Source: an uncultured Nitrososphaeraceae archaeon (lineage in GTDB: Archaea > Thermoproteota > Nitrososphaeria > Nitrososphaerales > Nitrososphaeraceae). Taken from it: a stretch of 64,000 nt of DNA. Location of the stretch: assembly GCA_963765895.1 (NCBI GenBank), contig CAVXZB010000073.1, forward strand, positions 32,001-96,000. Direction: 5' to 3'. Positions 62,530 through 64,000 of the stretch are shown here, piece after piece. The position numbers were made by a program, and so were the translations under genes. Each line of letters begins with the position of its first letter. Within the stretch, counting starts at the first letter, position 1. The notes beneath the pieces are model-generated. The model was not told the origin of the DNA. It made no database searches and was given only the letters and a program-made list of their open reading frames with translations.

Positions 62530-64000
62530 ATGCAGTTCGCTAGTGAATACAAGTCAAACCTCGGAAGAAGCCTCCAGGATAACAGAAACCAAGTATATGC
62601 TAGCAAAAATCTTCATGAAATCAGCTCAATTTATCATCAGCTGAATAATAATACAGTATTTCGGAGTATTAATTCTGACTCTTGGTGTCCTTGTGATGGT
62701 ACCTGCCCCAAATGCAATCGGGTCAACAACCGTGCAAAATCTGTCCCAATCGGGTTAAAAATCAGTAAACCTGATGATCCTTATGAACAGGAAGCCGATA
62801 AAGTAGCGGAGCAGGTTATCCGGCTTCCCTATTCTAATATTGCAGTATTAAAGCAAGAAGAAGGAGTATATCGAAAATGTGCTGTATGTGAGGCGAAGAA
62901 AGAAGAAGATGAAGAGGAAAAGGAAGAAAAACTAGAGAAAAATTTAAAGGTTAGTCGAAAACAGTCAACCGTACAAAATGCTAATACGAGTGATGCAATA
63001 AGCCAATTTACCAATGTAACTTCAAGCAGCGGCTCACCACTTGATAGTGATATTAAGGAGCTAATGGAAACAAAGTTTGGCTTTGACTTTAGTAACGTAC
63101 GTATTCATACTGACCACTATGCCAACAAGTCAGCAAAATCGATTAATGCTAAAGCCTACACATTTGGTAATAGGATCGTATTTGGCGAAGGACAATTTAA
63201 CCCGCATGCAAATGAAGGGCGCAGGTTAGTTGCCCATGAGCTAGCACATGTGGTACAGCAGAGTCGCATGGGAATATTGGTTCAACGTGCTATGGAAAAG
63301 AGCTGTAATTATGAACCAGGCGAAGTAGTTAAATCTCATTCTAAAAAGGGCATTTTGGATGTAGATGTGGCATTTGCTGGTTACTTTGGAATCGACAAAC
63401 CATCCAATACGATAGTAATAGCAGATTTTGTAGTAGAAGATCCAGATCTTAGGCCCTCAACTAAGGCTGAGTTAAATACAAGATGGATTGGCACTTTCAA
63501 GAAAGCCGACACGCTTGAAGTTATTGGTTATTCTGATTGTACTGGATCTGAACTATATAACGCCTCCCTTCGTGAAAAACGTGCTCAAGGGGTATCACAT
63601 ATTTTCGGCCCATCTGGACCAACTATAAGAGTGATAGGGGCGGCTAAGACTAGTGATTATCTGACCGACAATACAACGGAACGCGGTAGAGCCCTGAATC
63701 GTTCAGTACTTATTCAATTTCCTCAAGCCGTCCCGTCCCCAGTACCCCAGCCTGTGCCGCCAACTGTTACAATTAGGATGCGGGAACCAGATAACGAAGA
63801 ATGTTCTGAAGACCAACGAAAACATCTTGCTATTGCATTCCCCTTGGCGGAAATGATGATCAGAAATGCCATGGGAGAAATCTCAGAAATGGAGAAGGGT
63901 TCGATAGAGGAAGACGTCTTTATAAGGCATTTCGGTAAAGATGCTTTCTCTCATCGTTGGCACATTAAAAGCACATATTCTGATATCCTCAGACAATGGA
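62530..64000 (+). CDS. DUF4157 (eCIS core) effector-type protein with OmpA-like domain and probable M35-like peptidase; truncated by window end and absent from ORF track
   Basis: Open frame from ATG 62530: CPCDGTCPKC, LKISKPDDPYEQEADKVAEQV, FGFDFSNVRIHTD, AHELAHVVQQ, VQR, IGYSDCTGSELYNASLREKRA...RALNRSV, Pro-rich linker, CSEDQRKHL...HFG. Confidence 0.88.
   Translation, partial: MQFASEYKSNLGRSLQDNRNQVYASKNLHEISSIYHQLNNNTVFRSINSDSWCPCDGTCPKCNRVNNRAKSVPIGLKISKPDDPYEQEADKVAEQVIRLPYSNIAVLKQEEGVYRKCAVCEAKKEEDEEEKEEKLEKNLKVSRKQSTVQNANTSDAISQFTNVTSSSGSPLDSDIKELMETKFGFDFSNVRIHTDHYANKSAKSINAKAYTFGNRIVFGEGQFNPHANEGRRLVAHELAHVVQQSRMGILVQRAMEKSCNYEPGEVVKSHSKKGILDVDVAFAGYFGIDKPSNTIVIADFVVEDPDLRPSTKAELNTRWIGTFKKADTLEVIGYSDCTGSELYNASLREKRAQGVSHIFGPSGPTIRVIGAAKTSDYLTDNTTERGRALNRSVLIQFPQAVPSPVPQPVPPTVTIRMREPDNEECSEDQRKHLAIAFPLAEMMIRNAMGEISEMEKGSIEEDVFIRHFGKDAFSHRWHIKSTYSDILRQW

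Follow-up and report, generated by a model that had tools for sequence, protein, structure and literature searches.

What use would a peptidoglycan-binding-type domain be to an archaeon that has no peptidoglycan? The question is raised by a gene that closes a contractile injection system (CIS) operon in a 64,000-nucleotide stretch of DNA, here called the window (positions 32,001 to 96,000 of contig CAVXZB010000073.1, here C73, of the Nitrososphaeraceae assembly GCA_963765895.1). The product, P0002, is one of two cargos of the CIS of a soil ammonia-oxidizing archaeon, and it combines a DUF4157 carrier domain with an OmpA-like domain and an M35-type zinc peptidase domain, both of the latter confirmed by AlphaFold modeling and fold search. 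We consider it plausible, and somewhat favor the view, that P0002 acts on the bacterial envelope through wall docking and a zinc peptidase. Its combination of domains turns it into a concrete candidate for a weapon directed at bacteria in the neighborhood.

The open reading frame (ORF) listing gives the P0002 gene as an intact frame without stops on the forward strand, running from an ATG at window position 62530 to the end of the window at 64000 (490 residues), with a stop codon 333 nucleotides beyond, so that the complete protein (C73:94530-96332) has 600 residues. The motifs that a first-pass annotation of this DNA had named are all there: two Cys-rich motifs (CPCDGTCPKC at residues 53 to 62 and KCAVCE at 116 to 121), HELAH and VQR (236 to 240 and 251 to 253), an OmpA signature (GYSDCTGSELYNASLREKRA, residues 333 to 352, with NRSV at 390 to 393) and a Pro linker (PQAVPSPVPQPVPP, residues 398 to 411). 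Such a set is far above chance. The DUF4157 domain, which is zincin-like, occupies residues 170 to 246 (63037..63267, + strand) and matches the Pfam family eCIS_core (PF13699) with 107.4 bits against a cut-off of 22 (E 4e-31); its HExxH motif is H236-E-L-A-H240, and H236, E237 and H240 are kept in at least 90% of the sequences in our conservation alignment (22 full-length homologues of P0002, mean column identity of 37%). DUF4157 is an established carrier of C-terminal toxins in extracellular contractile injection systems (eCIS) (PMC8213781), and the Pfam score together with the gene's place at the operon's 3' end bears out the annotation's view of P0002 as a DUF4157-borne cargo. Directly behind this domain, Q252-R253 is nearly invariant in the family, and bacterial homologues have a similar LQRK ahead of a Cys motif; these are possible processing sites for the autoproteolysis that has been proposed for DUF4157.

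The OmpA-like, peptidoglycan-binding-type domain lies at approximately residues 260 to 400 (63307..63729, + strand) and was delimited by phmmer, fold and alignment. It starts with a family-specific N-terminal extension, C259-x-Y-x-P-G-E, and carries the motif G333-Y-S-D336-C-T-G...N344..L..R348..R351-A...N390-R391. The Pfam OmpA profile (PF00691) matches residues 300 to 391 with 19.8 bits (E 1e-3), under its cut-off of 27.2, and it also stays under that cut-off, at 23.5 bits, in a six-frame search of the genome. A phmmer search of P0002 against the PDB gave 34 sequences at E <= 1, nearly all of them OmpA-like periplasmic domains, the best being PA0833-PD (6jfw, E 7e-8), OprF (6e-5) and YfiB (1e-4), and in the alignments to these three proteins the TD and RRA columns are occupied by D336 and R351. 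An AlphaFold2 model of residues 255 to 600, made from a 66-sequence alignment, had a mean pLDDT (predicted local distance difference test) score of 91.3, and comparison of this model with known structures by Foldseek and VIA-align returned two independent domain matches. In the first of these, approximately residues 277 to 400 matched YfiB (Z 13.1), TagL (12.8), Pal (12.4), AbOmpA (3td5, 11.9) and OprF (11.5), with 104 to 108 aligned residues and a root-mean-square deviation (rmsd) of 2.1 to 2.8; the 3td5 entry is AbOmpA complexed with a peptidoglycan pentapeptide. For OmpA, the profile check that the annotation had suggested came out divided, with the Pfam score below its cut-off and both the PDB phmmer matches and the fold in agreement with OmpA. 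As modeled, P0002 has a real OmpA-like alpha/beta fold, and its sequence marks it as a divergent subfamily.

In the structures of AbOmpA and Pal, diaminopimelate is contacted by two conserved residues of the G-x-(T/S)-D...R-A motif, its Asp and its Arg (D336 and R351 in P0002). Both are invariant across the 22 homologues, as are G333, C337, N344, R348, A352, R387, N390 and R391, so that the relaxed selection on binding residues that the annotation had put forward as an argument against its own reading is not seen at the family level. Judging from these residues, the domain may bind peptidoglycan.

A Pro-rich linker (residues 398 to 415; 63721..63774, + strand), evident from the sequence and from a dip in pLDDT to 56, leads from the OmpA-like domain to an aspzincin M35 domain at residues 419 to 600, of which the start is inside the window (63784..64000, + strand) and the remainder past its end. 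The domain was delimited with Pfam and VIA-align. The annotation had compared this start to an M35 peptidase and expected a second HExxH in the rest of the frame, and it was right on both points. The family Aspzincin_M35 (PF14521) matches residues 461 to 594 with 36.7 bits against a cut-off of 30 (E 7e-9), spanning profile positions 9 to 141 of 142, and the motif H552-E553-x-x-H556 (HEAGH), D564/Y566 and N-A-D588-S-Y590 are all encoded past the window end. Aspzincins of the M35 family combine HExxH with a downstream Asp as the third zinc ligand, in a GTxDxxYG motif; the candidates for this Asp in P0002 are D564, which stands before a Tyr that is itself invariant (Y566), and D588, which is part of the NADSY motif that all homologues share. 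The modeled fold is that of M35 peptidases, with residues 419 to 600 matching deuterolysin (1eb6) at a Z of 18.5 and an rmsd of 2.5 Å over 163 of 177 residues in VIA-align, AsaP1 (2x3b) at a Z of 18.5 and the Grifola peptidyl-Lys peptidase GfMEP (1g12) at a Z of 18.0. Invariant in all 22 homologues are H552, E553, H556, Y566, N586, A587, D588, S589 and Y590. Seven cysteines are also invariant (C337, C425, C500, C508, C528, C567 and C575), and an eighth, C259, is nearly so.

The order of the two domains bears on which of them would do the damage. For PVC-metallopeptidase-OmpA proteins it has been proposed (PMC3482391) that the OmpA-like domain is itself the toxin, sequestering peptidoglycan precursors or stem peptides, and under such an action the M35 domain of P0002 would be an accessory or serve in processing. 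We find this very improbable for P0002, in which the OmpA-like domain is internal and not C-terminal and of which all 22 aligned sequences keep the M35 catalytic motif unchanged; the OmpA-like module moreover recurs before many different C-termini, as a targeting module would.

How such a protein might be loaded is suggested by its N-terminus and by a second cargo gene, P0003, which lies 3.2 kb further on (C73:99553-101139, equal to positions 7554-9140 of our extracted locus L003) and encodes 528 residues. P0003 is 49% identical to P0002 over residues 1 to 243 and unrelated beyond, and the two are the only eCIS_core genes in the genome. Residues 1 to 165 of P0002 (62530..63024, + strand), which hold both Cys-rich motifs, an acidic run and one conserved helix at residues 84 to 98 (EQEADKVAEQV), are predicted to be disordered in a full-length AlphaFold2 model (22 sequences, mean pLDDT of 73, with DUF4157 at 86 to 93): the N-terminal 150 residues score low except for that helix, with pLDDT below 50 in residues 1 to 61, 63 to 76, 102 to 127 and 129 to 151. 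A shared N-terminus with a divergent C-terminus matches the cargo scheme of AlgoCIS, in which an N-terminal domain is followed by DUF4157 and a C-terminal domain, and by analogy with the AlgoCIS cargos Cgo1 and Cgo2 the N-terminus of P0002 is probably a system-specific loading sequence. The 285-residue C-terminal domain of P0003 gave no Pfam family, a best PDB phmmer match of E 0.19 and Atlas scores of at most 0.80, which is chance level.

Putting these elements together, we infer the following course of action for P0002 against bacteria. The N-terminus common to P0002 and P0003 would be recognized by the AAA+ ATPase of the operon, and the cargo would be packed in the tube and, on contraction, carried across the outer layers of a neighboring bacterium. 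There the OmpA-like domain would use D336 and R351 to dock, without a covalent bond, on the stem peptide of the peptidoglycan. The zinc endopeptidase (H552/E553/H556) would in this way be kept at the wall and could cleave wall peptides or wall-anchored proteins. The eight family-conserved cysteines would fit folding, with disulfides, in an oxidizing compartment such as the periplasm. The producer would need no immunity protein because it has no peptidoglycan of its own.

The machine that would deliver P0002 is a contractile injection system of the eCIS type, or like a type VI secretion system (T6SS), encoded entirely on the forward strand. The first recognizable gene of the operon encodes a sheath of 766 residues (38612..40912; Phage_sheath_1C, E 1e-5, just under the Pfam cut-off) and is followed by genes for a tube protein (40917..41387; Phage_T4_gp19, 97.4 bits), a Pvc16_N protein with a TIG domain, which is an Afp16-like cap or terminator (43264..44505; Pfam), an AAA+ ATPase (45271..46617; PF00004, 96.7 bits), a spike OB domain of the gpV/VgrG type (49312..49788; Phage_base_V, 46.8 bits), a gp25-like baseplate wedge (50193..50585; GPW_gp25, 43.4 bits) and a baseplate J-like protein (50844..53042; PF04865, 20.8 bits and E 2.6e-4, just under the cut-off of 21.1). 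P0002 comes last, after all of these and after a stretch of unassigned genes that reaches 62311. The eCIS core set of sheath, tube, spike, gp25, baseplate J, Afp16-like cap and AAA+ ATPase is hence present; a tape measure, a PAAR protein and a fiber were not identified among the operon genes. From its position, and by analogy with the PVC and AlgoCIS literature, the ATPase would be an Afp15/Pvc15-like cargo loader. The two genes directly 5' of P0002 (59809..62311), of 624 and 211 residues, have no Pfam family above cut-off; the longer one has a repetitive NxxI/GxG pattern that by eye resembles a right-handed beta-helix, the shorter one gives a weak CarboxypepD_reg-like match, and by position both are candidates for fibers or receptor-binding proteins.

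The annotation had proposed looking downstream of P0002 for immunity or effector genes, and there is indeed a further cargo, P0003, but no immunity gene, as no ORF of at least 60 residues is present in the 960 bp between P0002 and the split transposase of an insertion sequence (IS). Side observations in the surroundings of the operon are a ParB-like gene just ahead of it (window 37185-38060), an archaeal phage-type integrase approximately 9 kb past the cargo genes (L003:13105-14289, minus strand; PF16795, 28 bits), and, approximately 19 kb upstream of the operon, a 189-residue dual-specificity phosphatase (window 19511-20080) that matches a "Swiss Army Knife" family with 88.9 bits and the polymorphic-toxin-system DSP-PTPase with 72 bits. 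It is possible that the island with the injection system belongs to an integrated element.

An archaeal operon of this kind could also be an artifact, a bacterial contig that binning had wrongly assigned to the genome of an archaeon. We have here a 4.9-Mb draft genome in 88 contigs, 88% complete and with an estimated contamination of 2.4%, which leaves room for such an error. We reject it. An IS with a DDE transposase at window 26229-27000 occurs in approximately 40 copies of 98 to 99% identity on many contigs, among them contig C24 with the archaeal amoA gene; the flank downstream of the cargo genes is kept in same-genus genomes at 79 to 94% identity; an archaeal phage integrase is present; the composition is host-like; and two genomes of this family that consist of a single contig each have eCIS_core genes as well. 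The contig is native to the archaeon. The presence of amoA identifies that archaeon as an ammonia oxidizer, in the family that contains Nitrososphaera, and the view of the annotation that the host lacks peptidoglycan is upheld by the absence of any match to the penicillin-binding protein transpeptidase (PF00905) or to SEDS (PF01098) in this 88% complete genome, whereas both families were found in 10 of 14 control genomes. A six-frame search of the genome gave a single OmpA-family match, the P0002 domain itself.

Some features of the assembly are noted here in their own right. The amoA match (C24:168102-168652) is broken into three pieces that follow one another in different frames and cover positions 1-86, 84-108 and 109-183 of the profile, reflecting either frameshifts or assembly errors, and the mere 796 ORFs of at least 300 residues in 4.9 Mb likewise suggest many broken frames. 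Same-genus genomes are also large (3.4 to 4.9 Mb) and have many IS copies. Contig C37:1-4426 duplicates C73:106565-111000, in the downstream flank, at 98% identity, possibly as a strain variant or a redundant contig.

A native contig may still carry a foreign gene, and where else the P0002 module occurs is therefore of importance. In a word-indexed search with residues 255 to 600, 3697 candidates yielded 24 proteins with E <= 0.001 and a top identity of 48%; 19 of the 24 have both PF13699 and PF14521 in a precomputed list, and one is labeled as a Gemmatimonadetes metagenome-assembled genome (MAG). An exhaustive search with the same residues gave 506 proteins at E <= 0.001, 112 at <= 1e-10 and 24 at <= 1e-30. 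In a metagenome scan, 29 homologue loci were found, 28 of them with a GC content between 0.45 and 0.73. The gene context was examined at two of the 29 (L112 and L114), with a Pfam scan of L112. The L112 homologue, which matches PF14521 with 50 bits and deuterolysin (PF02102) weakly (21.7 bits, cut-off 27), stands inside an operon with a sigma-54 activator, sheath, tube, Pvc16, AAA+ ATPase and baseplate J. A sigma-54 activator is a bacterial feature. At both loci the genes downstream of the homologue share the cargo N-terminus and are thus further cargo, and no immunity gene is evident at either. From these sequences, the DUF4157-OmpA-M35 family is a rare one that is otherwise found in high-GC bacterial eCIS operons.

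In the archaeal lineage the picture is that of a sporadic accessory gene, as the P0002 module was found in none of the 100 other family genomes sampled (including 6 of 6 of the same genus) and in none of the 400 other genomes of the class sampled. The eCIS_core family itself is present in 13 of 401 class genomes, and sheath homologues, at no more than 51% identity, in 5 of the 100 other family genomes. A single-protein scan of genome contigs with P0002 returned no relative, and a scan with the 22-sequence alignment gave 545 confirmed matches that were swamped by DUF4157-only relatives; the full module is in none of the 80 retained of these 545, three of which (L029, L038 and L062) reach the OmpA part, in genomes that have only weak OmpA matches. 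The module was not found (E <= 1e-10) in 401 genomes of the phylum of a Thermoanaerobaculia MAG, a search that had no positive control and shows little.

These data could be taken to mean that P0002 is a passenger of horizontal transfer, a cargo that arrived with, or recombined from, a bacterial eCIS cassette and that may still be loaded and fired but whose OmpA-like domain has no selected function in the archaeon. The location of the rest of the family in high-GC bacterial operons with a sigma-54 activator, the lack of the module in 400 other class genomes and the IS-rich region near an integrase all fit such an origin. We nevertheless regard the passenger explanation as unlikely. The frame is intact and has kept all invariant binding and catalytic residues. 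The GC content of the gene is 0.425 compared to 0.368 for the genome, and its GC content at third codon positions (GC3) is 0.339, which is host-like (58th percentile among the 796 genomic ORFs that reach 300 residues) and indicates that it is no recent arrival. Its N-terminus is of a local, lineage-specific type common to P0003 and to P0175, a protein of Nitrososphaera, which implies that a local carrier acquired the module. Finally, this second archaeal genus has an analogous, non-homologous cargo of the wall-binding-plus-peptidase kind.

That cargo, P0175 (597 residues, Nitrososphaera sp. G229), has eCIS_core with 121.7 bits, OmpA with 37.7 bits, which is above the cut-off, and a C-terminus with the metzincin motif HELGHVLGLEH (Reprolysin_5, 24 bits, below the cut-off of 27). 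Its gene is directly behind CIS-tube-like and spike genes and has as further neighbors the gene of an AAA+/WHD ATPase and pentose-phosphate genes. G229 is placed in the same family as the genome studied here and encodes a protein with 100% identity to an NCBI Nitrososphaera sp. entry, which makes this the family of Nitrososphaera. Since P0175 is similar to P0002 only over residues 76 to 244 (49%), the wall-binding and peptidase parts of the two are of separate origin. In 101 family genomes, OmpA-family matches were confined to P0002, P0175 and one further hit (in G410), which was discarded as spurious, being a low-complexity frame of 303 residues without an OmpA motif. Of 8000 candidates that were scored, 174 are related to the P0175 module at E <= 0.001, those with names coming from Arthrospira, Acidobacteriia, Panacibacter and a gammaproteobacterium. 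Among the 120 relatives listed there are 6 in which PG_binding_1 takes the place of OmpA before the same peptidase, in one case together with PG_binding_3. A second cargo of G229 (L145:1576-3171, contig C33) has, besides eCIS_core, a weak PG_binding_1 match (20.8 bits, under the cut-off) and, at residue 431, a second HExxH, and is possibly a third wall-binding-plus-metallopeptidase cargo of ammonia-oxidizing archaea. The OmpA-like part of P0002 recurs with a range of other domains. From 150 listed of the 506 matches we picked the 78 proteins that match this part only, and their domains include eCIS_core in 26, OmpA (PF00691, E <= 0.001) in 21, PG_binding_1 in 9, Ntox44 in 4 and NlpC/P60 and Tlde1 in 1 each. 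The swapping of unrelated wall-binding domains, with the enzyme behind them unchanged, is the best indirect argument that selection acts on wall binding.

Module exchange also bears on what the target is. The target of P0002 could be non-bacterial, be it protists, fungi, invertebrates or other archaea, in which case the M35 domain would be a toxin as in the secreted AsaP1 and the OmpA-like part would bind another ligand or act as a spacer. Characterized eCIS mostly strike eukaryotic cells (PMC8213781), the haloarchaeal CIS strikes archaea (PMC11566945), and the structures closest to the M35 domain are secreted fungal and bacterial proteases. Such a target nonetheless seems to us improbable, and slightly more so than the passenger explanation, because the peptidoglycan-contacting Asp and Arg are invariant, the P0175 family replaces OmpA by PG_binding_1 or PG_binding_3, domains united only by wall binding, and the partners of the OmpA subtype of P0002 include NlpC/P60 and Tlde1.

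An action of P0002 on the bacterial envelope has to be weighed against several observations. We know of no natural eCIS for which action in a bacterial periplasm has been demonstrated. The same family occurs in bacterial producers that do have peptidoglycan, and as no immunity gene is evident at the two bacterial loci examined either, the argument that none is needed in a host without a wall does not discriminate. The archaeal CIS characterized to date kills other archaea (PMC11566945). In addition to the low Pfam score of the OmpA-like domain and the absence of the module from the sampled family and class genomes, IS copies stand after P0002, between the cargo genes (L003:5293-6075), and after P0003 (L003:9481-10380). 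P0002 has a Gly at the nearly invariant position D559 (Asp in 20 of 22 homologues), and P0175 has a Ser at the canonical OmpA Asp, with an Asp two positions later. Near-identical DNA is present in four soil metagenomes of one study, possibly the source of the assembly, and two 151-nucleotide contigs of an RNA library from a second, plant-associated study are identical to the P0002 gene (L003:3249-3529); they give a weak hint of expression and may come from DNA carry-over.

With these points included, we still hold the bacterial envelope to be a plausible target of P0002. The wider proposal is a more tentative one: it is possible, though we would put it at somewhat under even chances, that soil ammonia-oxidizing archaea fire CIS that deliver peptidoglycan-docking zinc proteases into bacteria without an immunity cost, and that at least two Nitrososphaeraceae genera have assembled these independently from bacterial wall-targeting modules and their own loading N-termini.

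P0002 is less novel than the annotation implied, as DUF4157-OmpA toxins and eCIS toxins that bind peptidoglycan were already known in bacteria, and the interest is in the host. A 2024 paper counts 68 predicted eCIS toxins that have a peptidoglycan-binding domain (PMC11297309). The word OmpA is nowhere in the main texts of PMC8213781 and PMC11297309, and M35 and aspzincin are likewise missing from the main text of the latter. Among isolates, eCIS have been described in one archaeal phylum (PMC8213781), and in the literature on CIS in Nitrososphaera, Thaumarchaeota or ammonia-oxidizing archaea, as covered without the supplements of eCIS papers, which may list such loci, we found just a sheath of N. 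evergladensis in a table (PMC9230969). A 2025 study of archaeal peptidoglycan hydrolases states that the use of archaeal CIS against bacteria is untested (PMC12352652). For the cargo P0002 the only ligand class known occurs neither in its producer nor in the whole lineage, and there is a parallel in a second genus, which makes this question directly testable with a small defined protein. If the proposed action is correct, P0002 would be a cross-domain weapon that costs its producer no immunity gene, and since ammonia-oxidizing archaea compete with soil bacteria for ammonia, a weapon acting by contact or as a particle would bear on the ecology of nitrification. If it is a mere passenger, it is still a clean example of the exchange of cargo modules between bacterial and archaeal injection systems.

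Of the known systems, the Tox-OmpA proteins described by Zhang et al. in 2012 for proteobacteria and cyanobacteria (PMC3482391) share with P0002 a DUF4157 (PVC-metallopeptidase) carrier, an OmpA-superfamily domain, a link to phage-tail-like secretion and, often, the lack of an adjacent immunity gene. They are bacterial, and their presumed toxin is the OmpA domain, which stands at the extreme C-terminus, whereas in P0002 the OmpA-like domain ends at approximately residue 400 of 600, an M35 domain follows and the producer is an archaeon without peptidoglycan. The M35 peptidases deuterolysin (1eb6), the Grifola enzyme (1g12) and AsaP1 (2x3a) resemble P0002 in fold (Z of 18 to 18.5 and rmsd of approximately 2.5 Å over 157 to 163 residues) and in HExxH, but with 17 to 22% identity, and P0002 differs from them in having no signal peptide or propeptide and in being fused behind a carrier and an OmpA-like domain.

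Cgo1 and Cgo2 of AlgoCIS correspond to P0002 and P0003 in having a disordered N-terminus common to the cargos of the system, DUF4157, a variable C-terminal effector and an AAA+ ATPase in the operon (bioRxiv 10.64898/2026.05.27.728243). According to that report, experiments identified the disordered N-terminal domain as the loading signal and DUF4157 as dispensable for loading; AlgoCIS differs in its other C-terminal domains, in its bacterial producer and in that loading is experimental there and inferred for P0002. The haloarchaeal T6SS-like CIS (PMC11566945) is archaeal like the system studied here, and its DUF4157 proteins are secreted and partly toxic. In contrast to what we propose for P0002, it kills archaea and has effector-immunity pairs, and the main text of that report mentions neither peptidoglycan nor OmpA. 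The modular peptidoglycan hydrolases of archaea (PMC12352652), which kill bacteria, are Sec/Tat-secreted haloarchaeal glycosidases or amidases, described in a main text that has neither OmpA nor DUF4157, and in this they differ from P0002; like P0002, they join a wall-binding domain to a hydrolytic one whose substrate is absent from the producer.

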